Below, piece by piece: positions 44,344 to 60,518 of a DNA stretch of 64,000 nt. The position numbers were made by a program, and so were the translations under genes. The stretch is from a virus. The stretch lies in the IMG/VR virus record IMGVR_UViG_3300031565_005154; one strand, given 5' to 3'. Under the pieces are notes generated by a model. The model was not told the origin of the DNA. It saw only the letters and a list, made by a program, of their open reading frames with translations, and did not search any database. Position 1 is the first letter of the stretch. The number at the start of each line of letters is the position of its first letter.

Positions 44344-44884
44344 GCCTCCATGTTTTTTTGTTATGAATAAGCGTGATCGTAGACCTACTTACGTTAAAAA
44401 TTTCTGCGATTTCTCTTTGGACCAATTCCCCTTCGTTTAATAATGTATTAATTTCTATCACATTGTTTTCGGTCAATTTACTAAAACCATTGGAACTTCC
44501 TTTTGGTGGAGTTTTTCTTGCACATGATGTACCATGTATTGTCATATCATTACTATTAGATTTATGTGTATCATATCTAATATTGGAAATATAATTATTG
44601 GTAGGATTCCCATCGTTATGACAACATTCCATTCCCTCGGGACACGGACCAACAAAGGCTCTTGTCATTAATCGATGTACTAGATGATGCTTTTTTATTT
44701 TATTTTTGCACAAATTAACCTGTAAGTGTCCAGTTCTCATCGAGGTCGGTGCCAATATTCGTTCGTTAGTCCCTTTATAGTTGTATAAACTTTTAATTCT
44801 TCCCCAATTAGAAACTCTATATAGTCCTTCATATCCAACTACGTCTTTCCAGATTTCTTTGATTTCAATTTGTGGCTGTACCAT
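44330..44884 (-). CDS. NUMOD4-HNH homing endonuclease
   Basis: EIWKDVVGYEGLYRVSNWGRIKS...LVHRL..RAF...CHNDGNPTNN..SNI; C-terminal HTH. Confidence 0.9.
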   Translation of the reverse strand: MVQPQIEIKEIWKDVVGYEGLYRVSNWGRIKSLYNYKGTNERILAPTSMRTGHLQVNLCKNKIKKHHLVHRLMTRAFVGPCPEGMECCHNDGNPTNNYISNIRYDTHKSNSNDMTIHGTSCARKTPPKGSSNGFSKLTENNVIEINTLLNEGELVQREIAEIFNVSRSTITLIHNKKTWRHVDV

Positions 44885-45461
44885 AACCACTCCGTTCCAG
44901 CTTAGCACGAATGTTCTTACTTTTTGTCCACTGCTGTTTTCTGCTAAGTCCTAAACTATCCACAATATCATCCACTTGTGCCTGTATGAATATTTTGTCT
45001 TTTTCTGTCAAATAATGAGATGACAAAATATCTTGTAGCATTAAAAATGAATTAGAATCTTGTGCTGGTTCATTAAACAGTTCTTGCCAAGATTCTGTAT
45101 TTATCAATGTTTTGAGAATAGTTATTTCGTTTTTAGAAAGTCCTAATTCTTGACATATCTCTTTCTCTGTTCTCCCAGCCGCTAAAAGCACATCTAATAT
45201 ACGCGCTTTTTTTTTGACTCCGTACGGAGCAGATGCAGCATACATAGTATTTATAGCAGCACGACGCATGGCTCTTGCTATGGATATTATGGCATATCCC
45301 CGGAAATCGTGCTGCTTCCGCTGATTTTTATTGAGTTCAGCTAATTTAAGATGTCCTTCTTGAATGTAATCGTATACATCTGCATAACTATCAGGATAAA
45401 CAATCGCAATTTTTCTTGCTAAACGAGAAATAAAAGTACTTAGCGATTGCTCATCGGTCAT
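44865..45461 (-). CDS. Phage sigma-70-family alternative sigma factor
   Basis: Region 2 DYIQEGHLKL...FRGYAIISIARAMRRA; region 3 RTEKEICQELGLS; degenerate region 4 LTEKDK...LGLSRKQQ. Confidence 0.7.
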   Translation of the reverse strand: MTDEQSLSTFISRLARKIAIVYPDSYADVYDYIQEGHLKLAELNKNQRKQHDFRGYAIISIARAMRRAAINTMYAASAPYGVKKKARILDVLLAAGRTEKEICQELGLSKNEITILKTLINTESWQELFNEPAQDSNSFLMLQDILSSHYLTEKDKIFIQAQVDDIVDSLGLSRKQQWTKSKNIRAKLERSGYGTATN

Positions 45462-45473
45462 TTATCTATATTC

Positions 45474-45890
45474 CTAGAAAGGAATACTTGGATCATCTTC
45501 AACTGGTTGTGATGGTGCAGGAGCGGAAGCAGCGTCTGGCTGAGATTCACCCTTCTTTTTTCCATTCTTTTCTACCAATTGAAAATCACGAAGAGTCATA
45601 GAATATGATACTCGCTTTTGCCCATCCTTTTCCCACGTATCTTGCTTCATGTACCCATTGACATAAACCGGCTGGCCTTTCTTAACTAATTCAGCCATTT
45701 TATCAGCACGGCTACCCCAGACCTGAGCCCTTATGAAACAAACCTCTTGCTGCCATTCCTTGTTCTTGTTTTGAAAATTACGATTAAAAGCCAGATTGAC
45801 GGTACACACCGACATCTTTTGCTCTCCGACCTGCCGCAATTCTGAATCCGCCGTTGCTACACCAACACCAAAAACTCCGAGTTCAGCCAT
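45474..45890 (-). CDS. ssb: Single-stranded DNA-binding protein
   Basis: OB fold (ELRQ...LAFNR...AELVKKGQPVYVNG...WEKDGQKR) with acidic tail DDPSIPF. Confidence 0.95.
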   Translation of the reverse strand: MAELGVFGVGVATADSELRQVGEQKMSVCTVNLAFNRNFQNKNKEWQQEVCFIRAQVWGSRADKMAELVKKGQPVYVNGYMKQDTWEKDGQKRVSYSMTLRDFQLVEKNGKKKGESQPDAASAPAPSQPVEDDPSIPF

Positions 45891-45932
45891 TTTTTTACCT
45901 TTCTTATTTCTACACAATTTTGTACCATACTG

Positions 45933-45961
45933 ATTGTACGTCTAAGTCGAATTTTTGTTCC
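45933..45961 (-). promoter_or_regulatory. Class E promoter GGAAC-N16-CGTACAAT
   Basis: Reverse complement of 45961-45933; upstream of ssb and sigma. Confidence 0.7.
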
Positions 45962-45966
45962 GCTAA

Positions 45967-47817
45967 TTATATTAATTTCTGTATGTCCTTTACGATAAGA
46001 CTACCGTTCTTTTTTTCACCATAAATCAAGCAAATAAGATCGTCCTTACAGAACCCCTTAAGTCGCCCAAATGCATCTGGGAAAACAACAGCATGATCTA
46101 TTGAATATGTAGAATCCGATATGGTCAAGAAACACATGGGTTGTCCTGGGGTCTTGCCACGCTTGGTTTTTGTGTGTCTAACGCCATCTATGATTGCACA
46201 AACAGCAATCGCTTCCATATTCGGAGATTTTGCTATTTCTAGACACGTATGGGTAGCCAAACTAGTATCCACATCATCAGTAGGAGAACAGGATAAAGCA
46301 ATACCCAAGAAGTACTTCTCTGCAACGGCATTCACCGTATTAGTATCATTGATAGTGCCTTCTAACAAATTCGCCTTCGCCTCTACTACTTTTCGTCTAG
46401 CGTCACTTGCACACGGAGACTTAACCGCAATATCCTTGTAGCCATTTTGTATCAGTAGGGCCTCAATATCTTTTTTGGTTCGATTTTTTATGGTATCAAG
46501 CCAATCTTCTTTTTCCTTGGGTGATGTATATACGAATTTACTGTCCCCATCCGAAATGCTATCAAATGCAGATTCGGCCTGATCTAGATATTCTACCGCA
46601 GTTTGTACTAGTTCTTTTTTGATCATCTGACCAATCGTCTTGGTCTTATTACCTGGGGGTTGAGCCATTTGTAACAGAATTTCTTGAGTAGTCATCGCCC
46701 CCTGATGAAGTTGATCGAAAAAATGAATTCTCTCTTTATTTGTTAACCCTTTAATCTCGACCTTATTCCCGTTCAAATCTCTGGCAGTAGTTCCAAGTAT
46801 AATTTCCAGTTCTCGTACCATTTCATTACGACTCATGTCGTAACAATCACATGCACCAGATTTTATCAAAGCTATTCCCACATTCCTATGGAAACCTGGA
46901 ACCGCCGCCAAGAAGTGAGCCCAAGTCTCTAGAGACCCTACTGTGGCCCCTGTGGTGGTCGCTGTGACGATCTTTTGGATAGCCGAGGCTCCTACGCCCC
47001 TTATGTGCGCCAGACCGAATGCTACGCCTTTCTGGGGTTCTTCGGTCATTTGAAAATGAATGTTGCCCCTTCGAATATCGGGAGGTAAAATATCCACTCC
47101 AAATAATCGGGCGTCCTGTACTAATTTATAAATTTCTTCTTTTGGATCACCTTTATATTGGGAATAAGTCAAATAGCTAGTAAAAAATTCTTGTGGGAAA
47201 TGACATTTTAACCATGCTGTTGGATAGCTTATTCCTAGAGCATAACCCATTGCATGGGCTAAGTTGAATGAATATCTTTGACACTTCTCAATCCAACCGA
47301 ATATTTCTTCTGCGATTCCCCTGCCAATTTGGCTATGGGTTTGACATCCTGCTATAAATTTATCTTTAAGAGATGCCATTTTCTCTGCTAATTTTTTACC
47401 GATTGCAGACCTTAGCATATCTGCTTCAATAGGATCGAATCCAGCAAGATCGGTAGCAATCCGCAAGGCTTGTTCTTGAAAAATTAGACAACCATAAGTC
47501 GGTTCCAATATGGGCTTTAATAACGGATGTAGATACGAATGTTTTTTGCGTCCGAATTTGATATCCACATAATCCTGAGACATTCCAGAATCAAGACTTC
47601 CCGGTCTCAAAATACTTACCAAAGCAGCCAATTCTTCAATATTGCTAGGTCGTACTTTTTTGGCCCAATCTTGACCCAGATTTTTCTCTAACTGAAAAAT
47701 ACCGACAGTATGACCGCCTGAGATTAATTTCCAGGTAGCAGGGCAATCCAGTGAAATATCGTTAATACTGAATTCACCAGGAGTGACTTTACAATCGCAA
47801 TTGCTGAACTCTATCAT
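45967..47817 (-). CDS. dnaE: DNA polymerase III alpha, C-terminal fragment (fingers, HhH, OB)
   Basis: GIFQLE...LRPGSLDSGM...TYGCLIFQEQ...RYSFNLAHA...WLKCHFP...LPPDI...GLAHIRGVG; OB GQPMCFLTISD. Confidence 0.93.
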   Translation of the reverse strand: MIEFSNCDCKVTPGEFSINDISLDCPATWKLISGGHTVGIFQLEKNLGQDWAKKVRPSNIEELAALVSILRPGSLDSGMSQDYVDIKFGRKKHSYLHPLLKPILEPTYGCLIFQEQALRIATDLAGFDPIEADMLRSAIGKKLAEKMASLKDKFIAGCQTHSQIGRGIAEEIFGWIEKCQRYSFNLAHAMGYALGISYPTAWLKCHFPQEFFTSYLTYSQYKGDPKEEIYKLVQDARLFGVDILPPDIRRGNIHFQMTEEPQKGVAFGLAHIRGVGASAIQKIVTATTTGATVGSLETWAHFLAAVPGFHRNVGIALIKSGACDCYDMSRNEMVRELEIILGTTARDLNGNKVEIKGLTNKERIHFFDQLHQGAMTTQEILLQMAQPPGNKTKTIGQMIKKELVQTAVEYLDQAESAFDSISDGDSKFVYTSPKEKEDWLDTIKNRTKKDIEALLIQNGYKDIAVKSPCASDARRKVVEAKANLLEGTINDTNTVNAVAEKYFLGIALSCSPTDDVDTSLATHTCLEIAKSPNMEAIAVCAIIDGVRHTKTKRGKTPGQPMCFLTISDSTYSIDHAVVFPDAFGRLKGFCKDDLICLIYGEKKNGSLIVKDIQKLI

Positions 47818-47822
47818 ACCCC

Positions 47823-47851
47823 ATTATACCTCGAAATCAATTTTTTGTTCC
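47823..47851 (-). promoter_or_regulatory. Class E promoter GGAAC-N16-GGTATAAT serving dnaE-C
   Basis: Reverse complement of 47851-47823, filling the 40-bp gap before dnaE-C. Confidence 0.75.
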
Positions 47852-47857
47852 ATATAT

Positions 47858-48700
47858 TTAGAAACTTTCGTATGCCTTAGCAACGGTTTTCAATATATAG
47901 CCGATATCCGGGGACATTTCCGATAACCGTTTGAAAAGCGGTGTTTCAACAGCAGCCAGAACCTCGGGTTTATGTGTCCGATAACCCCTTGCTCCCCGAA
48001 GTCCTATTATCCCACCATGTTCAGCCAATCGGATATGTGTCCCGTGATGATTAGATGTCACTAGGGCGGGCCAATAAGTCTCGGATAAATCTGACGGTGG
48101 TTTACCTAGATCTGATTCTATTATCATTTTCAATAATAGTTGTTCATTAAAGCCAAGTGGCGGTAAACGAATATCACCGTGGGCAAGACGTGAACGATAC
48201 TTATCGATCATTGGATGCATCGCCGCAAACCACTCTTTCGGTTGGATTACATTTATACCACCCATTCGTCTAGGACCAGCAACGGGCGGTCGGATAAAAT
48301 TGCTGTATGGGATTCCTAATCGTCGACAATGAGCCAGATGTTGGTCCATATAAGATGGAAACTCACGATAAATAGCCATGTCTACATCGCCGATAGACAT
48401 GCATTCGTATTGCTCAAATGCTGGTTCATACACTAACCATCTTAGGCACTTTATAGTATTGGCATCGGCTGACCCGTATTCTGGTGTATATTCGGCAAAA
48501 GACAATTCTCTTACCTCGAAGTTGCCAGACAACAAAGCGAGCATGGCCCGAACATCGTCTGTTATGGTTTCGTCCAGCATCACTAACTTATGTGCTTCTG
48601 GATATGCTCTATTCAAGAAATACAAAAACCATGGGACATATTTTTGATATGACCTATTGGCTACAGTCATAAACAGCATTTTATGCTCATCGCACATCAT
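47858..48700 (-). CDS. Putative GT-A-fold glycosyltransferase
   Basis: FMTVAN..Y..YV...LRWL...SIGDVD (DxD). Confidence 0.55.
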   Translation of the reverse strand: MMCDEHKMLFMTVANRSYQKYVPWFLYFLNRAYPEAHKLVMLDETITDDVRAMLALLSGNFEVRELSFAEYTPEYGSADANTIKCLRWLVYEPAFEQYECMSIGDVDMAIYREFPSYMDQHLAHCRRLGIPYSNFIRPPVAGPRRMGGINVIQPKEWFAAMHPMIDKYRSRLAHGDIRLPPLGFNEQLLLKMIIESDLGKPPSDLSETYWPALVTSNHHGTHIRLAEHGGIIGLRGARGYRTHKPEVLAAVETPLFKRLSEMSPDIGYILKTVAKAYESF

Positions 48701-49449
48701 TATTCACCCATTGCCCTTCTAAACATTTGCCCCAAAAGAGTCGGAGCTTCAAGAAGTTGCCCACGGTTCATTCTTAATGATTGGGAATTACCCTGCTTGA
48801 ACATTTGATGAAACAGCATGACGCCAAAAGGGTTCTCAATACAGACGCGGTCGATCTGTTCTTTTCCGTCGAATCTGAAAGCCTCCCATGAGGCAATAGG
48901 CTGTATCAATTTGTTATCCAGGTGATGATAAGACAATCCAGATACAGCTTGACGCACTATAGAAGGTCCAAGTCCGCCCCAACGGAAAATGTGGCCCGGT
49001 TCATGAAGGCTCAAGGCGTGCTCAATTAGATTGACGGCTTTTGAAATAACTCCACCGCGCTGCGTCGAAAGCAAAAATCCACACTCTGGTTCGCCATACT
49101 TAAGAGTTGGGGAAGCGGTCGCTATAAGATCAATTCCATCCTTTAATAGATCAAGCGTTGGTTTCAGACTTCTAAATAGGATGAGATCAGAATCGAGCCA
49201 TATCCCCCCATATTCTCTCAGTAACATATACCGCAGATAATTGGACTTATTATTGATTTGAGCAATTTGAAAAAAGGTTTCAGAAATATTCGGTAAAAAC
49301 TGTTTTACATTATCAGTTGTCACCATGTGGATGTTAAAATCTTCCTGACAGTGTCTTTCTATTGTTTCTAGACATAACTTGATATAAGCAGGGGGTTCTA
49401 CTGCTGGTGGAATATTATCCCAATAGAGCCAAATTTTAGGTTTTCCCAT
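48700..49449 (-). CDS. GT32 / capsular-polysaccharide-synthesis-type glycosyltransferase
   Basis: KIWLYW...SNYLRYMLLREYGGIWLDSD...GLGP. Confidence 0.85.
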   Translation of the reverse strand: MGKPKIWLYWDNIPPAVEPPAYIKLCLETIERHCQEDFNIHMVTTDNVKQFLPNISETFFQIAQINNKSNYLRYMLLREYGGIWLDSDLILFRSLKPTLDLLKDGIDLIATASPTLKYGEPECGFLLSTQRGGVISKAVNLIEHALSLHEPGHIFRWGGLGPSIVRQAVSGLSYHHLDNKLIQPIASWEAFRFDGKEQIDRVCIENPFGVMLFHQMFKQGNSQSLRMNRGQLLEAPTLLGQMFRRAMGE

Positions 49450-49566
49450 TATTTTTCCTTTTCTTGTATTTGCGAGCAGGTGTGGTCAATGCTTTTGTCA
49501 ATGACCAGCCACATTTACAATTAGTCGTCCGAACTTCTTCCCAGACAGGTCTATGAATTTGCCCAT
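49450..49566 (-). pseudogene. Internally deleted HNH endonuclease remnant
   Basis: ATG at 49566 gives MGKFIDLSGKKFGRLIV (HNH N-terminus); another frame gives KCGWSLTKALTTPARKYKK (HNH C-terminus); catalytic core absent. Confidence 0.8.
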
Positions 49567-50141
49567 TATCTTAACACCGAATACAATAACATGTGTCGCG
49601 CGTCACCCATGTACGTATGAATGTTACTTATGTTTTCTGCCTCCATCCGTTCTCGTAATTCATCTTCTTTGTGTTTCTGAGATGGACTCTTGCGGACATC
49701 AAAATCTATTAGCGTTGCCTTAACTTTATCATATTCGCCAGAATTAATAAGGTCTAAAACAATTTCACACTCGCTACCTTCAGCATTAATTTTCAAAAAT
49801 ATTTCATCATCAGATGATATATTATCACGAAACCAATCGGATGCCTTTATGAATTGACATCTCGTCACTCGTTTCTCGGGGTTGCAAGTGGTTTCATAAT
49901 CTTCATGGACTGTTCCCCCTTGTGAACCCTCATTATGAAGCAACATCTCGCACGTCTCCGACCACAATCCAGCTTTAACAATTTTTACCCTTGTGTTATT
50001 GTTGAATTTTCTATTTAGAATGTCGAGACACAACGGAGATGGATCGAACCCAATAATGTGGTCGACTTTGAATCTGGGCTGTAACAACAATTCTATTGTT
50101 TGGCCCTGATGACTTCCTACGTCTAAAAATATTCTATTCAT
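49566..50141 (-). CDS. FkbM-family methyltransferase
   Basis: IFLDVGSHQG...GFDPS...AGLW...FLKINAEGSE. Confidence 0.85.
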   Translation of the reverse strand: MNRIFLDVGSHQGQTIELLLQPRFKVDHIIGFDPSPLCLDILNRKFNNNTRVKIVKAGLWSETCEMLLHNEGSQGGTVHEDYETTCNPEKRVTRCQFIKASDWFRDNISSDDEIFLKINAEGSECEIVLDLINSGEYDKVKATLIDFDVRKSPSQKHKEDELRERMEAENISNIHTYMGDARHMLLYSVLR

Positions 50142-50142
50142 A

Positions 50143-50985
50143 TTATTTTCTCCAATCAAAATATACAAAACGAGCCAGGAAAACGTCATTATGGATGTGG
50201 AATGCGAACTTTAATTTGGGCAATAATCCTGTAATTTTCAATTGTTTTATCGCAAATTCATGATTTGATGGAACTCCTTCTTTCAGGAATTTGCTAACAT
50301 TATCATACAAGTTCCCAAACTTATCCATGATTTCAGAGCCTCCAAAGAAAAAATAGTCAGCCAAAGCCGGGTAATTAGGTGTGTGCGGGTATCCTATATG
50401 AATATGTTGAAGTTCCTTATTTTCTTTTTTATTCCATCCATGAAGAAACCAATCTTCATGTCGGATTCCTTGCCCATTTGACATTCTCATAACACACCAG
50501 TTCGAAGCGTAAAAATGGTTTGGATCGAATTGATTAAAATGTACATCGGTCATCCAAGCAACATCGAATCTACCAATCATAACCATATCATATTTGAAAC
50601 CGTGTTGTTCTTCATATTTTTTTTTGAGTTGCATACATCTCTGAATACTATACCATCTTGCAATGGTTATCTGTGTTTTCGACGTAATACCATCAGGGTA
50701 ATTTTTATCAACCTTTGCTCCATTAATGTTGAATTTTGGGTCTGGTTCGAATATCGCGGCTTTTGGTTTATATGCATTTCTCAAATCTTGTTCTGCATCA
50801 ACACTTGGGGTGTGCATAAAGACATCTATATCGTTGTGGGCAAACATATGCTTCTGATAATGCTCTAAACCCTTCTCCCATTCAACAGGCGTCCTCTTTC
50901 CTGTCTTGCCATCCCACATCTGGCCGCCGACAACTTTTTTGCCCGGATGTAGTGCCATACCATTTAAGCATAGTGCGATTTTCAA
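50143..50985 (-). CDS. Putative glycosyltransferase-like protein
   Basis: MKIALCLNG...DVFMHT...YDMVMIGRFDV...DYFFFG. Confidence 0.55.
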   Translation of the reverse strand: MKIALCLNGMALHPGKKVVGGQMWDGKTGKRTPVEWEKGLEHYQKHMFAHNDIDVFMHTPSVDAEQDLRNAYKPKAAIFEPDPKFNINGAKVDKNYPDGITSKTQITIARWYSIQRCMQLKKKYEEQHGFKYDMVMIGRFDVAWMTDVHFNQFDPNHFYASNWCVMRMSNGQGIRHEDWFLHGWNKKENKELQHIHIGYPHTPNYPALADYFFFGGSEIMDKFGNLYDNVSKFLKEGVPSNHEFAIKQLKITGLLPKLKFAFHIHNDVFLARFVYFDWRK

Positions 50986-51701
50986 AATAATCTCCTAGCT
51001 ATGCCCATGCCATAGTCTAAGAACTTGCCTGATTTTATTTCTGAACCTATTAGTTGTTTATCGAATAATGTTTCATCTATTGCATCAAAAACTGATCTTG
51101 GGCCTATATGTACATTGGTATCATGTATGATTACATTAGCTCGCGGCGATAAGAATTCAGTAAAACACCAATCATTGACCATTAGTGTTATAGAATGATC
51201 TCCATCTATCATTAATAGGTCAATAGTTTTCATTCCAAGTTCCAGCATTTTTTCTCTGATGATTTTACGTAAACTGGAATCAATCTTCATCGTATGTATA
51301 TTTTTGCTTACGTCATTTATACTTGATTTATCATTAACATCAATTCCGAGATATACACAATCATCTTCTTTGTTTTCTAAAATTGCTCTTGTCGTTGATA
51401 GTAATGGTTTTTTATACACGTTTATTCCAATTTCCAATATAGTTTTAGTATCAGAGGATATGGCATTACTTAGCATATCTACGTGCGACTGTCTAATGGA
51501 AGGTCCACTATGGGCTAGCGGGGTATTCCCAGGTAAATTATTATGAATACACATAGGTAGACCAAATCCATCTTTAACTCTAACGAACATTCTTTGTTCG
51601 TCGTCTAAATATTCTGGTTTTATTGTCGGTATATATTTAAGACCAACGACATCGGATGGATTACGCTCCCAATTATTCTGCATCATGCCTTCTTTTCCCA
51701 T
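50982..51701 (-). CDS. Class I SAM methyltransferase (Methyltransf_24-like)
   Basis: ILEIGI...YLGIDV...IDLLMIDGDHS...VIIHD. Confidence 0.8.
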   Translation of the reverse strand: MGKEGMMQNNWERNPSDVVGLKYIPTIKPEYLDDEQRMFVRVKDGFGLPMCIHNNLPGNTPLAHSGPSIRQSHVDMLSNAISSDTKTILEIGINVYKKPLLSTTRAILENKEDDCVYLGIDVNDKSSINDVSKNIHTMKIDSSLRKIIREKMLELGMKTIDLLMIDGDHSITLMVNDWCFTEFLSPRANVIIHDTNVHIGPRSVFDAIDETLFDKQLIGSEIKSGKFLDYGMGIARRLF

Positions 51702-51730
51702 ATTGTGTTTTCCTTTATCTGTACCTTGCC

Positions 51731-52294
51731 CTATAGTGTGCGAACAATCTTACGCTCTTCACCGGAAGTAGTTTTGTCTACAAAATGGACTACTTCGTAC
51801 TTACGATCAAACGTTAACACCCATTCGTTAAACGCCCTTTGTTCGTGATCGTCATATTTCTCATCGTGTCTATAAAACCATTCATCAAATACAATAATTG
51901 TACCTGGTACTATATAGTCATCAAGTGCTTCTAAAACTTCTTTAGCAGAACTATATAGATCGGAATCTATGTGTAATAGCGCAATGGGTTCGGCAATCTG
52001 AAGGTAATCTGATAGCGTATCTGTGAACCATCCAGCATAGAATTTGACATCCTTAACATCAGGAATCACTCCATTAGTCGAGAAATATTCTGGCGGTACA
52101 ACTACTTTTCCGTTTTTGTCCACCCAAGCTTCTGGTAATCCTACAAATGAATCAAAACCAAATACTTGAAAAGATTCGTCTAGGGTTTGTCTAATTGTCC
52201 GAATGGTTCCTCCATGACATACTCCAAATTCTAAAACATGTTTATATTTAGGATTGATTAGTGTAAGCCCATGCTGCAAACTAGATTTATTCAT
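51731..52294 (-). CDS. TylF/MycF-family sugar O-methyltransferase
   Basis: VLEFGV..G...VFGFDSFVGLPE...GWFTDTL...LLHIDSDLYSS...GTIIVFDE. Confidence 0.85.
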   Translation of the reverse strand: MNKSSLQHGLTLINPKYKHVLEFGVCHGGTIRTIRQTLDESFQVFGFDSFVGLPEAWVDKNGKVVVPPEYFSTNGVIPDVKDVKFYAGWFTDTLSDYLQIAEPIALLHIDSDLYSSAKEVLEALDDYIVPGTIIVFDEWFYRHDEKYDDHEQRAFNEWVLTFDRKYEVVHFVDKTTSGEERKIVRTL

Positions 52295-53852
52295 TATATT
52301 CCTCCAATTCATTTAGCATTAATTTTCCAAGGTGAAATAGCATTTCTGCATATGGTTGATGATGTAACGCTGCGATATTGAGATATATAAGTGCTGTCAA
52401 CAATTTTACTTTGTGGTAGTCGTAATGGTTACGTACCAAATATTGTTGTAGCCATGTTTCACAATCAATGAGTGTTTGTCTTCTCAGTAAATCAAAGTTA
52501 ACTGTGTCACCATTTATATCAATCTCATACAAACCTTTGTTTATAATGCCGTGTGATACAATTAGTCCATGCCACAGTTTGGCTAAATCGTAATAGATAT
52601 CACCGTAATCACTTAACCCACCAAAATTTTGTCTCCAGTCTAATAAACAGAAATATCCATCCATATCTATAATATTCTCGAAATGTAAGTCGCCGTGAAA
52701 GCGGACTGGAATTCCTGTAGATATCCACGTCCAATCTATCTTGTCCAGTAACTCAAATATAGGCGGAACATCTACACCATTGATACATTGTGCTGAATCG
52801 TGATATCCAAAACGTTCAAAGTAATCACATACTCGTTGAATAGTCTTGTCTTTGTAAAATCGAAGATATACATCTTGAACATCGGCTGTCAATAATTGTC
52901 TATCTCCCCACATTTCTTCCATCCAAATAAGGAACTTCCTAAATAATGATGTGGTTATAGTTCTAGATAAAACTTGACCATCGATCATTTTGTAACAATA
53001 CATATTCGGAGTACTTCCTTCGATTATCGGAACATGCCCACTTAATGCGATAGCTCGTTCAACTCTTTGTGCAATGAATTCTTGGTCTGTTGAGAACTTG
53101 ATGACTCTATCATTGCAAAACCAAATGTGTTCCTGTTCTTTTGGAAGAATATTAGGGGCATCCTCTCGGTGGAATATATTATTTGCGTGCGCAAGCGATT
53201 CTACTGTACCAGTATCGTACCATGTAAATTCAACCCCTTTAATTGGCTGCTCTTTTATCATCGAAGCTAAGGCAAATGATTCTCCTTGATTGGTGGTACC
53301 TTTTTGCAAAGCTTCGTCCATAGCTTCCCAGAAGGTTTTGTAATCGTGGATACCACAAATTCCAATATAAGCTTTTGCTTCTGTGTGAACACCCTTTTCG
53401 CCTAAATCCTTTACTACTGTGTTATCCCATGAATCTACGACAACAGAACGATAATCTTGACCAGCCCGGACATTGGCATGTCCTATCCAATCATGATCTG
53501 GCGGTGGAATATCTTCTGTTACTATCGCATCGTTGGTAAAAAATATAAACGGACATTGTAGCATATCTTGGTAATCACATAAATCTGCCGTAAGACCATT
53601 TCTATTTGCCCATATGAATGTGAACTTACGATCTGGATAAGCCAATGTTAAAAATTCTTTTACCAATTCCCCTTTGTGTCCAAGATCAATAATCAATTCT
53701 ATGTTTGGCGGAAATTTCTCGATAATGTACGAAATAATTGGACGATTGGCTACTGGGACCAATGTCTTATTGACATGATCGCAATGATTGCCTAATCTGG
53801 AGCCAACACCAGCGGTTGGAATTAGTACTTTGTATGTTTTATTCTCTCCCAT
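52287..53852 (-). CDS. Nucleotidyltransferase fused to an APH/choline-kinase-like phosphotransferase
   Basis: VLIPTAGVGSRL...NKTLVPV; WYDTGT; FHGDLHFENI...LLDWR...GDIYYDLAKL. Confidence 0.88.
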   Translation of the reverse strand: MGENKTYKVLIPTAGVGSRLGNHCDHVNKTLVPVANRPIISYIIEKFPPNIELIIDLGHKGELVKEFLTLAYPDRKFTFIWANRNGLTADLCDYQDMLQCPFIFFTNDAIVTEDIPPPDHDWIGHANVRAGQDYRSVVVDSWDNTVVKDLGEKGVHTEAKAYIGICGIHDYKTFWEAMDEALQKGTTNQGESFALASMIKEQPIKGVEFTWYDTGTVESLAHANNIFHREDAPNILPKEQEHIWFCNDRVIKFSTDQEFIAQRVERAIALSGHVPIIEGSTPNMYCYKMIDGQVLSRTITTSLFRKFLIWMEEMWGDRQLLTADVQDVYLRFYKDKTIQRVCDYFERFGYHDSAQCINGVDVPPIFELLDKIDWTWISTGIPVRFHGDLHFENIIDMDGYFCLLDWRQNFGGLSDYGDIYYDLAKLWHGLIVSHGIINKGLYEIDINGDTVNFDLLRRQTLIDCETWLQQYLVRNHYDYHKVKLLTALIYLNIAALHHQPYAEMLFHLGKLMLNELEEYNE

Positions 53853-54186
53853 AATCGTCCTCAACTCTTACTACGTCGTCCAATTCGGTCGTAGATGCTT
53901 CTAAGTAAATTGCGTCTTCTTTACCTTCCATGCGATGTACTTCTCCTGGTAAAATAGTGCAAAAATCACCAGGATACAAAACAATATCTTCCCAAGTCGA
54001 TTTAGCTCCGATAAAATTTTTGGTAATTAACAATGCACCACTTAATACATAGATGGTTTCTGTTTTGTACTCATGATATTGTAGACTACATCTATGCCCT
54101 TTGTACATATATATTTTTTTGACAACATATCTTTCTGTGTTAGCAAGAATTTCTTCTTTACCCCACGGTTTTCCAATAGCTTCCAT
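53839..54186 (-). CDS. Cupin, mannose-6-phosphate isomerase C-terminal-like
   Basis: KPWGKE...SLQYH.YKTETIYVLSG...PGEVHRM...EASTTELDDVVRVEDDYGR. Confidence 0.85.
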   Translation of the reverse strand: MEAIGKPWGKEEILANTERYVVKKIYMYKGHRCSLQYHEYKTETIYVLSGALLITKNFIGAKSTWEDIVLYPGDFCTILPGEVHRMEGKEDAIYLEASTTELDDVVRVEDDYGRE

Positions 54187-54191
54187 AGTCT

Positions 54192-55226
54192 CTACTCCAA
54201 TGAAAACAAGTAATGTTCGATTACACTTGTTATTTCACTAATAATACTTTCACGAATATTGATCTTTTTCGAAAGCTTTGCAACAATTTGTTGATATGCC
54301 TGCCCGTTAAAGTGATAGTGGCCAGCTATCCACGCACATGGTATTCGCCGCATCCCTACGGATGCATAAAGCCATTTCTCCCAATTTCCGCCGTTATTAA
54401 CTTCATCTATAAAATGCTTAATATCTATACCATACATTAAAGCCTTAGACAGTACATGACTAGTTTGTACGACCCCTAGTTGCGGAGCAATATTTACAGC
54501 ACCTACAATACCTTTTCGATAAGCTATTTGTTCGGTGGTTAGATAATCGGCGTTATGTTCTTTCGTTTTGATACCCAATTTGCTTAACGCCTTGTGTATG
54601 ACACGAACTTTGTCAATATCAAACGATCCTACGTTACTTGCTTCTCGCACAAGACTGCCTGTCTGCACGACATAGAAAGCAGGGTGTGATATTTGTTGAC
54701 ATGTCCGGGCATCTTCTACGATTCTATCGACATCGTCTTCGGCCTTCCCCCTATTGACATCTGTTCCGATTTCAAATCTTATATCTGGCCTTGTGTCTAG
54801 GGCAAATTGCATTAATGCTATAGTATTTTGTATCTTTTCTTTATGCGACATGGCTCGTCCAAATGCCAATGTATCCGTATCCCATTTTGTTGTGGCATTG
54901 CATAAGTCGATATGAATAAGATCGAAGCCATGTTCCAAATCACAACGGATAGTATCCTGAACGGATTCCAGAGAATTGCTGGGGCTTCCGAAACCAGGAC
55001 CACAATGGTCACGGCAAATAGCAACATTTGCATATGGGTATTTATGTTTCATGCTTGCCAAATAATCAATATACTGTGATGTAGTAAATACATATCCACT
55101 ATCAATATCCACCTGATTACGAGAACATATGAGCATCAACTGTTTCCCGAACCTACTGGAATGGCGGAAAACTGCTTCAATAACTTCTTTACTCATTGGT
55201 CCGCAGGCCAGATTAGATGTCAACAT
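54192..55226 (-). CDS. GatZ/KbaZ-like TIM-barrel (tagatose-phosphate aldolase/epimerase family)
   Basis: CGPMS...LICSRNQVD...CRDHCGPG...GFDLIHIDL...FEIGT...KEHNADY...NIAPQLG. Confidence 0.75.
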   Translation of the reverse strand: MLTSNLACGPMSKEVIEAVFRHSSRFGKQLMLICSRNQVDIDSGYVFTTSQYIDYLASMKHKYPYANVAICRDHCGPGFGSPSNSLESVQDTIRCDLEHGFDLIHIDLCNATTKWDTDTLAFGRAMSHKEKIQNTIALMQFALDTRPDIRFEIGTDVNRGKAEDDVDRIVEDARTCQQISHPAFYVVQTGSLVREASNVGSFDIDKVRVIHKALSKLGIKTKEHNADYLTTEQIAYRKGIVGAVNIAPQLGVVQTSHVLSKALMYGIDIKHFIDEVNNGGNWEKWLYASVGMRRIPCAWIAGHYHFNGQAYQQIVAKLSKKINIRESIISEITSVIEHYLFSLE

Positions 55227-55587
55227 GTTCCATTCCCTTATTTCGAGGTAGATTTACGCAAGCGGCGGTTTCGGCAATTGTTTTGGCTTTCATGTCATTA
55301 ATAACTACTCGTTGTCCTTTGGGCAGTCCCATGATTAAACTATGGAAAAACAAACCAGTATCGTGTAATTGTTGATTTGTAAAGCTTCGAAGACTCTCTG
55401 GTCGTCCCGTTGTTAAAACAATCGTATATCCTTTATAACCCCATCGTTTGAAAGCCTCTCGTACACCAGGCAATAATTTACACGGATTAGTAAGTATAGC
55501 TGTCATATTGCCATGATGTTTTAATATACATCCATCGATATCACAAAAAACCGTCTTGATATGTGCGGCGTGATCAGTCTGTTTCAT
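55213..55587 (-). CDS. HAD-superfamily phosphatase
   Basis: VFCDIDGCI...IVLTTGR...RVVIND. Confidence 0.85.
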   Translation of the reverse strand: MKQTDHAAHIKTVFCDIDGCILKHHGNMTAILTNPCKLLPGVREAFKRWGYKGYTIVLTTGRPESLRSFTNQQLHDTGLFFHSLIMGLPKGQRVVINDMKAKTIAETAACVNLPRNKGMEHVDI

Positions 55588-56512
55588 TGATAAGTCCTTC
55601 CTCTAGAGCTACTTCGTCATCACATCCGTTAATCAAATCCTGTGCTTTCCACATCTTATCTAGTGCTACAACACCGAGGAAATCAAACTTGACACACCCC
55701 ATTGCCTCGGCATGGCCCATCTCTACGCCAACAACGCGATTTTTGCTCTTGGTATCATAGGCTAATGGCACTAATTCTGCTATCGGTCTATCAGCAATTA
55801 CAACTCCAGCAGCATGTTTGGACTGAGACTTTTTGGTTCCTTCAATACGTATCGCTTGATCAAATAGTGGTTTATACCATTCATAGGCATCCTGAACATA
55901 TTCAATATTATGCACAGCCCACTGCAATATGCCGTAATCATCCCCTTGTTCTGCTCTCGCTTGTCTCAATTCATCCGTTATTGTGGCTTCTTCTGGGATA
56001 TGATGTGTAATATCATTGCATAAATCGTGAGGTGTGATACTAATATCATCCGTATCTTTCCCTTCTTTCAGAGCCTTAACCTTCATTAGATGTCTCACCG
56101 TATCTGGATTAGCACGAAATACTTCTTTCAGAGCCGCTTTCCCTTGAAGCCGACCGAATGTTATCATCTGGGCAACATATTCTTCGCCCCATCGCTCTTT
56201 GAGATATGCTATCACCTTACTACGAAAGACAACTGAAAGGTCTATGTCTATATCTGGGAGGCTGATATGACCAGGATTAATAATTGGGGGCTTATCAAAA
56301 CATATCTTATTGACCTTTTCAACAATCCACATTACATAACTATTGCTCGGATTATTTCTATCTAAATCTACGTTATCTATTAAGTACTGATAATATTTTT
56401 GTATTTTAATATCTTTTAATATATCAACTTCTAAAGTAAAGAATTTATTATCTTTAATTTGTATAAATCTTTCTTTATTTATTTTATTTTTTATGAATTC
56501 ACGAAAATTCAT
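55574..56512 (-). CDS. dnaE: DNA polymerase III alpha, middle fragment (palm/thumb, with the catalytic Asp motifs)
   Basis: SLPDIDIDL...VAQMITFG...AALKEVFR...SQSKHAAGVVIA...GCVKFDFLG. Confidence 0.93.
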   Translation of the reverse strand: MNFREFIKNKINKERFIQIKDNKFFTLEVDILKDIKIQKYYQYLIDNVDLDRNNPSNSYVMWIVEKVNKICFDKPPIINPGHISLPDIDIDLSVVFRSKVIAYLKERWGEEYVAQMITFGRLQGKAALKEVFRANPDTVRHLMKVKALKEGKDTDDISITPHDLCNDITHHIPEEATITDELRQARAEQGDDYGILQWAVHNIEYVQDAYEWYKPLFDQAIRIEGTKKSQSKHAAGVVIADRPIAELVPLAYDTKSKNRVVGVEMGHAEAMGCVKFDFLGVVALDKMWKAQDLINGCDDEVALEEGLINETD

Positions 56513-56513
56513 C
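56503..56513. repeat. 11-bp direct repeat copy 1 (GAAAATTCATC) at the HNH/dnaE-M junction
   Basis: Identical to 57199-57209; contains the dnaE-M start codon. Confidence 0.7.
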
Positions 56514-57168
56514 GTTGATCTCCTTTTCTTTTTTTATTATGCATCGTATCTGCCGGAATTGTTAACGCATTCCTTACAGACCAACCAACTTTAATTCTAT
56601 ATCGTATCGTCGCTTGTTTTATTCCTGTTATCTCCTCCCATTCCGCAAAACATAATTCTTTGTTATCATATTTTAATAAATGATTGGTTCTTCTATTTCT
56701 TGATTGCTCTGCCATGGTTGACAATTTGTAGTTTTCTGGACAATAATTCCCATTGTTCTCAATACGATCAATAGTTTTGCTTTCTGGAATTTCTCCAATG
56801 TCATTCAAAAAATTTATATATCCAGTTTTTTTATTGTTCCATCTTTCACATACGGCGATACCTCGTCCTCCATAATCTTTATAAGCAGAATCATTATGAT
56901 TATTACATCTCCTTCTCATTCCGATCCATATATGATGTGTTCTTGAGTGTTTCCCATTTATTGTATGGCCGTGTGTTTTGTTTAATTTACCAATTTTTGA
57001 CGCATATTGTTTTTGTAAACAGCCGCAGCTTTTACAATGGCCACTTTTAACTGATAACAATCTAGTTTTGAAAATTCTGCCACAATAACATTGAAATTCT
57101 CCGCATATATTTCCATTATCTGATTCATTTTTAAGAATTTGTATTAATTTTGGTTTTGCATATTCCAT
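56509..57168 (-). CDS. Free-standing HNH homing endonuclease between dnaE fragments
   Basis: CYCG...CKSCGC...WIGMRRRC...YGGRGIAVC...TIDRIENNGNY.PEN; TAATG and ATGA overlaps with both dnaE pieces. Confidence 0.88.
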   Translation of the reverse strand: MEYAKPKLIQILKNESDNGNICGEFQCYCGRIFKTRLLSVKSGHCKSCGCLQKQYASKIGKLNKTHGHTINGKHSRTHHIWIGMRRRCNNHNDSAYKDYGGRGIAVCERWNNKKTGYINFLNDIGEIPESKTIDRIENNGNYCPENYKLSTMAEQSRNRRTNHLLKYDNKELCFAEWEEITGIKQATIRYRIKVGWSVRNALTIPADTMHNKKRKGDQR

Positions 57169-58538
57169 TAATAATTGTCCTGAATAAATTTATCGAAAGA
57201 AAATTCATCAAAAGATATATGTTTTTGAACGTTTCTACCACTGTTGTAAAATCGTTCGAAGTATAGTCCGTACTCGATTGGATCGATACCGGTAATTCCC
57301 GTGAGATAGTTGATTAGAGAACCAGCACCAGAACCACGCCCCTTCCCTCTAGGACCATGATTTTCATCTACAAATTTGCAAGCGTCCCAGACAATCAGGA
57401 AGTAATCTGCCAATTTAGCTTCCATAATAACAATAAGTTCTCTCTGTAGTCTGTCCCAATATATCCTTTTCTGTTCAGGGGTCAAGTGTGTAAGCTTTGT
57501 TTTTGCGCCTTCGATACAGAGATATTTCAGATATTCATTTGAGTTAAGTTTGAGTTTCGTAGATTCGTCATTTGTGAAAAGCGGTAAATACGGGTTGTGA
57601 CCCAACCCTGAATATTCTATCCGATTTGCAATATCTAATGTAGTTTGAAGTTCTTCCTCCGTGAAGTGTTGTCTCATCTCGTCATAAGAAAGTATATAAT
57701 AATTATCTGATATAAAAAAGTCCATAACATCTTGTCCGGTAGAAATTTTATAATCTTGCGCCTCTTTAGTTGTGTGAAGCGAAGCATAAAGTAAAAGTCT
57801 CTGGTCCTCGGCGTCATTTTTTCTACAATAATGAGAATCGGTCGTCGGCACAACAGGTATTCCAGTTTCTTTACTTAATTCACGAAGACATTCTGCTACG
57901 ACTACCTGCATATCCATTCCAGCGAGTTGAATTTCAAGATAATAATTACCTTTTCCAAATATGGCTAGATGCTCGGCAATGATAGCTTTGCCAACATCTT
58001 TCCAATCTGGTTTGAGATATTCTCTCGAACCCGCTGCGTTTCCATTACGACCCGCCATGATAGCCGCTTTGAAATCAGTGAATAAAGACATCGGTAATTG
58101 TCCGGCTATGCAGGCATTTAAGCAAATTAAATTACCATGTTTAGCAAACGGCGTGATTTGTTCAAGGCTAAGTCGAGGTTTTCTATAAAAATGTTCTGGC
58201 TTATTCGATTCACTCACAAGAGACATTAAATCCTTTATTCCCGCATCGTTTCGAGCTAAAATAATTAAATGATTTCTCTTATTGTTGCCATTATTTTTGA
58301 TAGTTGCGTGTTGTTCACACTGATAAATTTCACAACCAACAATACATTTGATTTTCGCTTTCTGACATTCATCATAAAATGCTTTCATACCAGCCAAGGT
58401 TCCATGGTCAGTGATACTGCATCCAGGTAAACCCAATTCTATACATCTTTTAACTATGTCTTTCGGCGCCGACAAACCATCCAAAAGTGAAAAGTAACTA
58501 TGCTGGTGGAGTGGAATATATGTTTTTGGATTATTCAT
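57168..58538 (-). CDS. dnaE: DNA polymerase III alpha, N-terminal fragment (PHP domain plus linker)
   Basis: LHQHSYFSLLDG...ITDHG...GCEIY...HLIILARN...TTDSHY...YFLIVWD...GRGSGAGSL...FERFYN. Confidence 0.93.
   Translation of the reverse strand: MNNPKTYIPLHQHSYFSLLDGLSAPKDIVKRCIELGLPGCSITDHGTLAGMKAFYDECQKAKIKCIVGCEIYQCEQHATIKNNGNNKRNHLIILARNDAGIKDLMSLVSESNKPEHFYRKPRLSLEQITPFAKHGNLICLNACIAGQLPMSLFTDFKAAIMAGRNGNAAGSREYLKPDWKDVGKAIIAEHLAIFGKGNYYLEIQLAGMDMQVVVAECLRELSKETGIPVVPTTDSHYCRKNDAEDQRLLLYASLHTTKEAQDYKISTGQDVMDFFISDNYYILSYDEMRQHFTEEELQTTLDIANRIEYSGLGHNPYLPLFTNDESTKLKLNSNEYLKYLCIEGAKTKLTHLTPEQKRIYWDRLQRELIVIMEAKLADYFLIVWDACKFVDENHGPRGKGRGSGAGSLINYLTGITGIDPIEYGLYFERFYNSGRNVQKHISFDEFSFDKFIQDNY
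57199..57209. repeat. 11-bp direct repeat copy 2 (GAAAATTCATC) near the dnaE-N 3' end
   Basis: Identical to 56503-56513. Confidence 0.7.
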
Positions 58539-59181
58539 TATTTTGCTTTCCTTGTTTCCCTGCTGGAGTTATTAATGCTTTTTCTGTTGACCAACCAAGT
58601 TTCAAACGCCTTAAGATGGTCCCCTTATGTATCCCCGTTTCCTCTGCCCAAGCTGCAACACATTGAGCTTTTCCGTTATATGTAATTAAACGGTTATTTT
58701 GTCTATTTCTGGCTTGTTGTTTTCTGGTTGCCCACCGACAATTAGATTTACAATACCCTTTATCGTTTTTAATTCTATCCAGAGTAAGTCTTGATGGACG
58801 TTCTCCCATATCTTCAAGAAAATTTGTAAAATTTTCCCATCGTTGACAAACCGTGATTCCTCGACCGCCATAATCCTTATATTGCTTAAAATTAGGATCA
58901 GTGCATCTTTGAATCATACCTCGCCATGATAAATAAGTTGCAGTTGTTCCATTTTTTGTGTTATGACCATGTTTAGTTAATTGTCGTACAACCATTTCTT
59001 TCTGGAAACACCCACAGCTTTGAGTATGACCACTTTTAAGATGATAACCAAGAACGACAATTTCTTTGCCACAATCACACTGACATAGCCATTTTATCTG
59101 TCCCTATTGATTTTTATTAGCATATTTGATAACAATAAGTTTACCAAATTTTTTCCCAATTAAATCAATGAACTTTGGCAT
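58531..59181 (-). pseudogene. HNH homing endonuclease with in-frame TAG at codon 26 (59104-59106); a truncated form could start at ATG 58995
   Basis: MPKFIDLIGKKFGKLIVIKYANKNQ*GQIKWLCQCDCG...QSCGC...MIQRC...YGGRGITVC...LDRIKND.GY..SNCRWA. Confidence 0.8.
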
Positions 59182-59182
59182 T

Positions 59183-60136
59183 TTATTTCTCTGGTTTTCC
59201 AATAGCCAACTGACCTTCACAATCCAGGCCAGCGTAGCGGTCTTCAACATAATCGCCACCCATTGTGTGTAAATCGCTCCACACCCTCGAACATATTCCG
59301 TTGTTATTAAAACCGCACATTTTACAAGTCCAGTGACGGTTTCTGCGAATTAATGTATCCCTTTTAACTGTCGTAAAGAAGCTATGTAAAATAGCTATCG
59401 TTTTAGCTAAGTCATCTTGAGACAAAGCAATCGTAATTGGCCCACCAGAATTTGTATAATAAAAGGTTATTAAAAATTTCTTATACTTGGGATACAAAAA
59501 ATATGCTGCCAAATGATAAAGTCTAGGCTGTATTTCTTTCATCAGCACTACTTCATCAATTGATTCTTGTGTGTAGAAACTTTTTCTCGCACCAGTTTTC
59601 CAGTCTACAATTTCTAATGTTTCTTTGTCGAGTTCGTGGGTAAAGTCTATAAAACCCCGTGATGCAAATTGGTGTGTCTTTCCGTCCTCATCGACACATT
59701 CCCATTCTTTTCCGGGCATTGCGAGCGCGAACCATCGTTCACTATCTATAACGTTAAGATTGTACGGATTGTAAAATTGATCCTCCAATACTGTTTCGAG
59801 TGCTATTCGACATTTTTTGAAATCCGCACATTCCTTAAATCCACCAGTTTCTTTATCGATACGTGTGGTAACTCTTCTTATGGCTATTTCGGGAGATGCT
59901 GCTGTGTGTTCGTCCCAAGCCCTATTGAGTAACCACATGGGATCGACATTAGTCTTGCCGCGTTTGCGCAATTTGACCATCCATTCTAGAGCCTGGTGTA
60001 CAATACTGCCCTGGAGCGCTGCTTTGCCTGCTCGTGATTCTAGACCCAAGATATAGTGGAGGAAATAGGCGAAAGAACAATGGTTGTATAATCCGATTGA
60101 ACTAGCGCTACATCTAACAATTTTCATCTGTTTCAC
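59183..60136 (-). CDS. Cas4/AddB-like PD-(D/E)XK exonuclease with probable Fe-S cysteines
   Basis: SASSIGLYNHC; GSIVHQALE; RGFID...IVDWKTG; QPRLY; C-terminal CKMC...C. Confidence 0.85.
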   Translation of the reverse strand: MKQMKIVRCSASSIGLYNHCSFAYFLHYILGLESRAGKAALQGSIVHQALEWMVKLRKRGKTNVDPMWLLNRAWDEHTAASPEIAIRRVTTRIDKETGGFKECADFKKCRIALETVLEDQFYNPYNLNVIDSERWFALAMPGKEWECVDEDGKTHQFASRGFIDFTHELDKETLEIVDWKTGARKSFYTQESIDEVVLMKEIQPRLYHLAAYFLYPKYKKFLITFYYTNSGGPITIALSQDDLAKTIAILHSFFTTVKRDTLIRRNRHWTCKMCGFNNNGICSRVWSDLHTMGGDYVEDRYAGLDCEGQLAIGKPEK

Positions 60137-60518
60137 TCTTAGTAATAACTTCGTTTCTCCTTATACCCGCTTGCCAATCGAAACTATCATCCAAGTCTGT
60201 TCGACCCACCTCTTCGTAATGCATAATACACATTACGTTGAATATGATAGCGGCACCATGATCCTCATCAGTGTCTCTTTTTATGAATTGATATACGTGT
60301 CTTAATAAACTAGTTATACAGCGAGATACAGGAATACCCTTTGTCCAATTATGTTCATCATATTTCTCAGCACCCCTAGTATACAACATCGCAAGTCGTT
60401 CTAGTGGACCTGGAGGTATTAAATCATAACGTGGCTTACCCTTCTGGGTATCTCTGACAGCACCTCCGTCAAAATCTTCGCGTATTCCAGAATCTTTTGT
60501 GTCAAATTGCTGCGACAT
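60114..60518 (-). CDS. dATP/dGTP diphosphohydrolase (DUF5664-like)
   Basis: KPRYDLIP...GAEKY.EHNW.KGI...SLLRH...EDHGAAIIFN. Confidence 0.8.
   Translation of the reverse strand: MSQQFDTKDSGIREDFDGGAVRDTQKGKPRYDLIPPGPLERLAMLYTRGAEKYDEHNWTKGIPVSRCITSLLRHVYQFIKRDTDEDHGAAIIFNVMCIMHYEEVGRTDLDDSFDWQAGIRRNEVITKSETDENC

Follow-up and report, generated by a model that had tools for sequence, protein, structure and literature searches.

We analysed a stretch of 64,000 nucleotides of DNA from an uncultured soil phage, taken from the IMG/VR record IMGVR_UViG_3300031565_005154 (the whole stretch is called the window below), in which DnaE, the alpha subunit of DNA polymerase III (Pol III alpha), is encoded by three separate open reading frames (ORFs). 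The three pieces are consecutive and colinear and make up a complete DnaE, with neither gap nor overlap. In our judgement this C-family DnaE is probably the only DNA polymerase of the phage, and its three polypeptides would reassemble non-covalently into one enzyme. We favour this reading because all three pieces are under selection, the splits are conserved, a lone polymerase is found in relatives, a cultured phage, phiT1, has the same intein-less cut, and a model of the complex passed its test. The active site would be assembled from three chains, with the GS motif supplied by piece 1, the three aspartates by piece 2, and the finger arginines by piece 3. Pol III alpha is generally regarded as an enzyme of one chain; its only widely known natural split, to our knowledge, is that of cyanobacteria, where an intein repairs it. 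A first-pass annotation, made from the letters of the window alone, had already proposed a non-covalent replicase of three polypeptides; this stands as the best-supported interpretation, while the history of the two breaks and the origin ascribed to the HNH gene between pieces 1 and 2 are corrected below.

Three consecutive pieces of one DnaE

The pieces lie on the minus strand, in the following order along the protein:
57168-58538, minus strand: dnaE piece 1, 456 amino acids; PHP domain and N-terminal half of the palm including GRGSGAGS, with the C-terminal end FDKFIQDNY before the stop
55574-56512, minus strand: dnaE piece 2, 312 amino acids; a lineage-specific head of ~80 amino acids, then the DxD motif (PDIDID), thumb, and the third catalytic aspartate (KFDFLG)
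45967-47817, minus strand: dnaE piece 3, 616 amino acids; fingers (ADMLRSAIGKK, YSFNLAH), HhH/beta-binding region, a lineage-specific region, and a C-terminal OB-like end

These coordinates are exactly those first assigned to the three ORFs, and the profile matches follow one another along the polymerase. Piece 1 matches PHP (PF02811, 1.3e-37, residues 10-204) and positions 1-99 of the 260 in the DNA_pol3_alpha model (PF07733), while piece 2 covers positions 94-260 of the same model (6.5e-33). Piece 3 matches DNA_pol3_finger (PF17657, positions 19-164 of 166, 3.1e-45) and HHH_6 (PF14579, 2.9e-12). Against PHROG 405 (1190 positions), pieces 1, 2 and 3 cover positions 41-439, 435-615, and 623-1054, respectively, so that an alignment to full-length DnaE profiles bears out the proposed coverage. 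The PHP domain, the palm with three catalytic aspartates, and the fingers with HhH are all present; they are not on one polypeptide, being spread over three ORFs that each have their own start and stop.

The catalytic aspartates of E. coli alpha are D401, D403 and D555. Residues 205-295 of piece 2 align to E. coli alpha 483-573, which places D277 at D555, and residues 77-134 align to Taq alpha 453-510. Both PDIDID and KFDFLG are located in piece 2, as first described, and residues 17-330 of piece 3 align to E. coli alpha 585-895. By Pfam and these alignments the catalytic aspartates and the fingers are thus on different chains, as had been claimed. Piece 1, initially described as PHP plus linker, does contain PHP and in addition the first half of the palm. 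For piece 3, described as fingers, HhH and OB, the first two are recognized by Pfam, while no Pfam OB match is found on the window’s piece 3. Weak tRNA_anti-codon matches (PF01336) occur in the homologous C-terminus of relatives (4e-5 to 4e-4) and in gp18 of phage phiT1, and some piece 3 homologues carry a precomputed PF01336 match; a putative OB fold of piece 3 is thereby suggested through homologues only.

Near the start of piece 3, three cysteines (C7, C9 and C25; 47743-47799, FSNCDCK...SLDCP) do not vary among 30 homologues, while E. coli alpha lacks them; a role in metal binding or in docking is conceivable. In the complex model described below, confident contacts fall at residues 11-18 of piece 3 and none on the cysteines.

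Selection and a predicted three-chain complex

All three pieces are under purifying selection. Synonymous divergence (dS) is saturated in every comparison, and the proportions of nonsynonymous (pN) and synonymous (pS) differences were used instead of dN/dS: pN is 0.09-0.30 (0.15-0.30 for piece 1, where pS is ~0.8) against a saturated pS of ~0.7-0.9 for piece 1, the core of piece 2, and piece 3. Residues D87, D89, D91 and D277 of piece 2 are invariant in 20 sequences, and little or no variation is seen in the GS-motif region and in the finger motifs (20-30 sequences).

We modelled a complex of full-length pieces 1 and 2 with residues 1-230 of piece 3, from alignments of our own and with piece 2 as the scored partner. 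The three-chain model reached an ipSAE of 0.83 in three runs, compared with 0.36 for the best control. In calibration, 58 of 80 solved complexes attained that mark, as did 2 of 110 mismatched pairs; these counts are rough given our own alignments. The predicted multimer passed its controls, and this denotes likeness, not binding.

The palm-fingers break goes back to the ancestor of a large phage clade

The break between pieces 2 and 3 (break B) falls in the surface linker after the last palm element, equivalent to E. coli alpha residues ~574-584. It puts PHP, palm and thumb (the N half) in one gene and fingers, HhH and OB (the C half) in another. Searching IMG/VR with pieces 2 and 3 gave 39 loci on ~22 contigs, many of them 160-181 kb, at 55-78% identity (individual loci are given L numbers below). 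Wherever a contig includes both halves, 5-10.6 kb separates them. Stand-alone C halves of 580-650 amino acids, with fingers and HhH and no palm, make up more than 120 protein clusters, down to 46% identity. A single ORF of ~760-790 amino acids encompasses pieces 1 and 2 in 21 of the 22 relative loci, which are 20 distinct sequences. Judged from these loci, the ground state of the clade is a bipartite DnaE, because pieces 1 and 2 are fused in 21 of the 22 and the halves are separate in all. By the same comparison the two breaks have different histories: break B is ancestral to a large clade of uncultured phages of ~160-180 kb, and the break between pieces 1 and 2 (break A), which recurs in loci L040 and L042, belongs to a sublineage. 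The proposed split points are thus found again in relatives, widely for break B and in these two loci for break A.

In the remaining locus, L023 (IMGVR_UViG_3300009788_002519), a TGG-to-TGA change at ~4890 cuts short the fused N-part. The near-identical contig L032 differs from it at 2 positions in 2337 nucleotides, and either an error in sequencing or a variant with a defect would account for the change. We rejected the acidic tail of the N half as a candidate docking motif, since in several relatives it varies or is missing.

A single palm locus and a single finger locus are present in each of five relatives with a rated completeness of 97-100%, and no family A (PolA) or family B (PolB) polymerase was found in these five. 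From their gene content, the split DnaE is the only polymerase of those five phages. A near-identity DNA search of the phage collection gave no match for the window, which therefore has no close cultured relative. The same palm-fingers break, without an intein, is present in the cultured Rossellomorea phage phiT1 (GenBank PV767480.1), where gp20 (573 amino acids) holds PHP and the full palm and gp18 (469 amino acids) holds fingers, HhH and OB. As phiT1 is a cultured phage, an intein-less cut at this position is compatible with viability. Moorella phage MTATph1 has an unsplit DnaE of 1070 amino acids. Distant metagenomic lineages (P0158-P0209 and P0211-P0242) have proteins of 520-545 amino acids with PHP and palm, or of 400-500 amino acids with palm and fingers and no PHP. 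The splitting of DnaE appears to be recurrent beyond this clade.

The first break lies inside the catalytic fold, in a recombining module

Break A falls between FERFYN and HISLPDIDID. It separates the GRGSGAGS segment of piece 1 from the DxD strand of piece 2, and the cut is thus within the catalytic fold. The segment around it is distinct from its flanks:
56272-57242, minus strand: AT-rich split module, comprising the piece 1 tail (residues ~433-456), the endonuclease slot, and the piece 2 head (residues 1 to ~80)

The GC content of this module is 17-35%, compared with 40-46% in the flanks. It stands in place of a clade-specific in-frame loop of ~119 amino acids that runs from FERFYN to HISLPDID in the fused relatives. 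The window’s tail (24 amino acids) and head (~80 amino acids) are weakly homologous to the fused loop (17-29% identity), while the loops of fused relatives are 64-82% identical to each other. A length-restricted protein search for stand-alone piece 2 found several homologues of 299-312 amino acids, at 65-82% identity and with a common head (MEFREFIK...NSYVMW); the head is 65-79% conserved among seven tripartite homologues, and the tail is also conserved. As far as sequence comparison goes, tail and head are a diverged, conserved allele of the clade-specific loop, neither junk nor a duplicated junction. In L040, piece 1 (456 amino acids) is followed after 4 nucleotides by piece 2 (308 amino acids), and there is no endonuclease gene. 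In L042, piece 1 is followed by a GIY-YIG gene and a 189-residue ORF, then by piece 2. Neither this 189-residue ORF nor a 183-residue ORF of L041 has a Pfam match.

The module and the rest of the polymerase have different affinities. Piece 1 is 50-77% identical to the first 456 amino acids of the fused N-parts of ~780 amino acids. In a sliding profile from residue ~433 of piece 1 to residue ~80 of piece 2, the window is 57-80% identical to L040 and L042 and 10-33% identical to the fused sequences, while outside the module it is closest to the fused L024 and L025, at up to 97% identity. For the N-part, a tree was built from the 662 columns left after taking out the loop; the tripartite group had been defined by architecture beforehand. 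The window groups with the fused L024 and L025 (98/94) and L042 with the fused L037 and L038 (100/100). Forcing the three tripartite genomes together cost 141.8 log-likelihood units, and their monophyly was rejected by the approximately unbiased (AU) test (p = 3e-61). The incongruence between module and backbone means that the split allele moved between backbones, or that fused alleles did.

Break A may be pictured as a distinct loop allele with a short tail, a gap, and a head of ~80 amino acids with its own Shine-Dalgarno sequence and ATG. This split allele would recombine between polymerase backbones, the gap serving as a landing slot for free-standing homing endonuclease genes, and the endonuclease genes in the gap are the obvious candidate for the mechanism of transfer. 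Tentatively, and with rather less assurance than the three-chain enzyme itself, we propose that tail, gap and head are a mobile gene-splitting module, an allele of a loop on the palm surface, with its own stop, ribosome-binding site and start and with peptide ends for re-association, which is spread by endonucleases, offers a slot to HNH or GIY-YIG genes and, added to break B, yields a three-chain active site. If so, the module would give successive homing endonucleases a harmless landing slot inside an essential gene.

An endonuclease-like gene fills the gap

The gap of the window and the adjacent region hold related genes, with a further copy elsewhere:
56509-57168, minus strand: free-standing endonuclease-like gene annotated as HNH, 219 amino acids; fills the gap between pieces 1 and 2
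58531-58995, minus strand: second endonuclease-like paralogue, 154 amino acids; between the exonuclease gene and piece 1, PHROG 3377 match at 6.7e-57
40824-41459: third paralogue, within 39804-42637 (minus strand)

That an HNH gene parts pieces 1 and 2 agrees with the protein’s matches to the “HNH endonuclease” PHROG 374 (1.8e-49) and to PHROG 3377 (3.6e-45); it has no Pfam match. The gene is flush with both pieces, its start overlapping the piece 1 stop (TAATG) and its stop overlapping the piece 2 start (ATGA), which is preceded by AAGGAG, a strong Shine-Dalgarno sequence. The second paralogue is 42% identical to the gap protein and is not found at this site in L040, where the exonuclease gene abuts piece 1. 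Proteins of the PHROG 374/3377 family occur as several paralogues per genome at different intergenic sites, including in the relatives L024, L028 and L034.

The first-pass annotation compared this arrangement to the mobE-split nrdA gene of phage Aeh1. The analogy holds for the architecture, with an endonuclease gene exactly between the halves and 20 distinct relatives fused at that point; it need not extend to how the split arose. Nor can the HNH gene be named as the cause of the first break, because the break also occurs empty (L040) or with an unrelated endonuclease (L042). Loss, replacement, or later colonisation of an existing gap would all be possible histories. The empty gap of L040 and the GIY-YIG gene of L042 do make the gap a slot for endonuclease genes. 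An 11-mer direct repeat that flanks the HNH gene (57209-57199 and 56513-56503) was considered as a target-site duplication and is not read as an insertion scar, because the tail and head sequence in which the two copies lie is conserved and coding and occurs also in L040, which has no HNH gene.

Weighing the alternatives

Several observations weigh against a three-chain replicase and its proposed history. The stretch was matched in no RNA run. The absence of a second polymerase is established in five relatives only. Residues 182-188 of piece 3 (47254-47274) read YSFNLAH and so depart from the clade consensus, YSFNKSH. The pass of the complex model may reflect structures of intact Pol III alpha that had been solved and were known to the predictor, and the model has no confident contacts for the piece 2 head (residues 1-75). 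An AU test on the piece 2 core alone (229 columns, which is too short) did not reject a tripartite clade (p = 0.147). Lastly, an arginine replaces the first histidine of the classical HNH motif in the gap protein (“DR”, invariant in 6 paralogues), and its activity is uncertain. Classical HNH_3 proteins have “DH” where the PHROG 374/3377 family has the invariant “DR”. Separately, L012, L014 and L016 carry an intein at the exact FNLAH/FNKSH site (residue 185/187), and FNLAH might have been left behind by a lost intein or might be a variant of the homing site.

The alternative that survives best, though we consider it unlikely, is that the pieces are decaying or separately used remnants in a phage that depends on the host replicase; the PHP piece could, for example, be an exonuclease, and the C half could bind DNA or the clamp. 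The departure of FNLAH from the consensus would fit such decay. The strong purifying selection on all three pieces, with catalytic and finger motifs invariant or nearly so, argues otherwise, as does the retention of the arrangement in more than 120 clusters. The pieces are also embedded in a full replication module, with primase, DnaB-like helicase, exonuclease, SSB and ligase, and no alternative polymerase is present in the five complete relatives.

It is very unlikely that pieces 1 and 2 are joined in RNA, with the AT-rich segment of ~970 nucleotides acting as a group I intron, or something similar, that carries the HNH ORF. HNH genes often reside in phage group I introns, the segment is compositionally distinct, splicing would yield a canonical FERF...HIS-LPDIDID junction, and “HIS” is found at both edges of the segment. 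However, there is no Rfam match in 44000-60000 at E <= 1, and the overlaps of the HNH ORF with the stop and start of its neighbours and the strong Shine-Dalgarno sequence of piece 2 speak for translation of separate ORFs. About 70 codons of the head stay open in sequence of 17-22% GC (chance ~1e-3 by our own estimate), and head and tail are both conserved coding sequence. The L040 ORFs lie side by side with no insert, and the fused relatives keep the homologous loop in frame.

A covalent repair of the protein, by split inteins of the cyanobacterial DnaE kind or by atypical short inteins, is a shade less credible again. It draws some plausibility from the relatives, whose dnaE genes often carry inteins (at positions equivalent to residue 69 of piece 1 and residues 76, 141 and 185 of piece 3), from the LAGLIDADG intein in the window’s RNA ligase, and from the invariant C7, C9 and C25 near the start of piece 3. 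Yet no Hint or intein Pfam match occurs in any piece at E <= 0.01, while the same search, as a positive control, finds inteins as in-frame inserts in relatives’ dnaE and in the window RNA ligase; the claim that the pieces lack split-intein ends is thereby upheld. At break B there are just 17 + 16 residues beyond the sequence alignable to E. coli, and there is no room for an intein because only these 33 residues span the break (11 in E. coli). The tail of the N half is moreover variable in length and absent in several relatives. No intein block motifs are seen in the tail and head at break A, which share homology with the in-frame loop of the fused relatives.

Finally, an artefact of assembly, through either a chimeric contig or a frameshift error, can practically be dismissed, despite the metagenomic source and the single-base nonsense difference of L023 from a near-identical contig, given that six soil-metagenome runs contain 55500-58600, that single contigs of 63.6 kb and 41 kb from two runs span 45800-58700 with 1-2 differences, that both HNH junctions are bridged in contigs of a run not marked as a possible source, and that no joints or indels were reported and the architecture recurs in dozens of independent assemblies.

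Comparison with known split polymerases

Cyanobacterial DnaE is reportedly encoded by dnaE-n and dnaE-c, which carry a naturally split intein (Wu, Hu and Liu 1998). As in cyanobacteria, Pol III alpha in the window comes from separate, distant genes of the same replicon. While the cyanobacterial halves are rejoined through a split intein by protein trans-splicing, the window pieces have no intein and their product would stay in pieces. The positions differ as well, the cyanobacterial break lying inside the fingers, just before CFNKSH, and the window breaks at the palm-fingers linker and inside the palm. A further reference for the cyanobacterial split DnaE is Caspi et al. 2003, as cited in PMC3919608.

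In the Aeromonas phage Aeh1, NrdA is reportedly split by the HNH gene mobE, a case of a ribonucleotide reductase with its genes in pieces (Friedrich et al. 2007 PNAS, as referenced in PMC5135824). The two systems share a free-standing HNH-type gene between the halves of an essential enzyme that are thought to reassemble non-covalently, and relatives in which the gene is intact. They differ in the enzyme, and in that the break seen here also occurs empty or with GIY-YIG, and conserved tail and head peptides travel along with it. T4-like jumbo phages have a minimal Pol III alpha that is split (Iyer, Anantharaman, Krishnan, Burroughs, Aravind 2021, Viruses 13:63; PMC7824862), where a Pol III alpha-type catalytic module is made as two proteins from distant genes and is likewise predicted to be one enzyme. 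The jumbo-phage module is minimal, without PHP, HhH or OB, and is accessory to a family B replicase (PMC7824862), whereas the window has a full-length DnaE in three pieces (two in the fused relatives) that, judged by its relatives, would be the sole polymerase, and the break points are unlike. A split family B polymerase is known in chimalliviruses (bioRxiv 10.64898/2026.09.30.755723), and a split family A polymerase in some marine phages; these too are separately encoded polypeptides, although the polymerase families and folds are unrelated.

The phiT1 halves are adjacent, with a 49-residue ORF between them, are ~35% identical to the window proteins, and lack the second break. Two-gene DnaEs of the phiT1 type, also seen in similar Bacillus-type siphophages, are in GenBank, annotated without comment, and we found no paper that comments on the phiT1 split. 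In our literature search, an intein-less split of a full-length phage DnaE was not described. What the window would add to these precedents is a cut inside the catalytic fold, a three-chain active site, and a recombining split module with an endonuclease slot.

These arrangements suggest that a C-family replicase tolerates permanent cuts at the palm-fingers linker and even inside its Pol-beta-like catalytic fold, and they offer natural split points for engineering DnaE and for studying domain docking. The clade also provides a natural series, with alleles that are fused, split and empty, split with HNH, split with GIY-YIG, and intein-bearing, which bears on how endonucleases invade essential genes without killing and on whether a split can be a reusable slot.

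Promoter-like motif and sugar cassette between the halves

The following elements lie between pieces 2 and 3:
47823-47851, minus strand: promoter-like motif GGAACAAAAAATTGATTTCGAGGTATAAT, ending 5 nucleotides before the piece 3 ATG
47858-55587, minus strand: cassette of 10 co-oriented genes, 7.7 kb, assigned by Pfam

The consensus TGGAACA-N15-(C/G)GTAYAAT occurs in six copies in the window, all with the same spacing and all intergenic, where ~0.02 would be expected by our own estimate. Copies are at 4057, 4890, 7786 and 14960 on the plus strand and at 45961 and 47851 on the minus strand; each has a T-rich tract upstream, and several have the TATAAT box 5-7 nucleotides from an ATG, which points to transcripts with no leader or a very short one. 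Ahead of the C half, (G)AGGTATAAT-N5-ATG is found in 13 of 14 relatives. A generic sigma-70 scan showed no enrichment over shuffles. The first-pass annotation gave piece 3 its own promoter in a gap of 40 bp; the motif is real and conserved, and from its placement a separate promoter for the C half, possibly giving a leaderless or very short-leader mRNA, can reasonably be inferred. The C half would thus have its own conserved promoter-like element directly before the ATG, with the sugar cassette between the halves.

The description of a 7.7-kb sugar cassette between pieces 2 and 3 is borne out by its 10 genes of sugar, methyltransferase and glycosyltransferase type. They include a HAD phosphatase-like gene, a GatZ/KbaZ-like gene, a cupin/mannose-6-P-isomerase-like gene, a nucleotidyltransferase plus kinase-like gene, TylF/FkbM-type methyltransferases, a DXD glycosyltransferase, and unknowns. 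A cassette of varying gene content is present between the halves of every relative that holds both (for example L018 10897-15767, L021 10815-19268, and L041 1567-6930), always with genes of sugar-activation, glycosyltransferase or methyltransferase type. The variable sugar island and the separate promoter-like motif raise the question of the timing and ratio of subunit expression.

Gene neighbourhood

All genes from ~64000 down to 35700 are on the minus strand, and the region is a replication module. The window’s replication genes also include a ligase, and those around the dnaE pieces are:
61661-63994, minus strand: DnaB-like helicase
60502-61674, minus strand: primase
60114-60518, minus strand: MazG-like pyrophosphohydrolase
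59183-60136, minus strand: exonuclease
45474-45917, minus strand: single-stranded DNA-binding protein (SSB)
44865-45461, minus strand: sigma-like gene

At 39804-42637 (minus strand), two glycosyltransferase-like ORFs of 392 and 339 amino acids, both matching PHROG 2170, have the third HNH-like paralogue flush between them, and this may be another endonuclease that sits between genes or splits one. The RNA ligase gene at 9280-11343 (plus strand) contains an in-frame intein with a LAGLIDADG endonuclease domain (Pfam: Intein_splicing 9.5e-12, LAGLIDADG_2 5.3e-23), with RNA_ligase matches on both sides.

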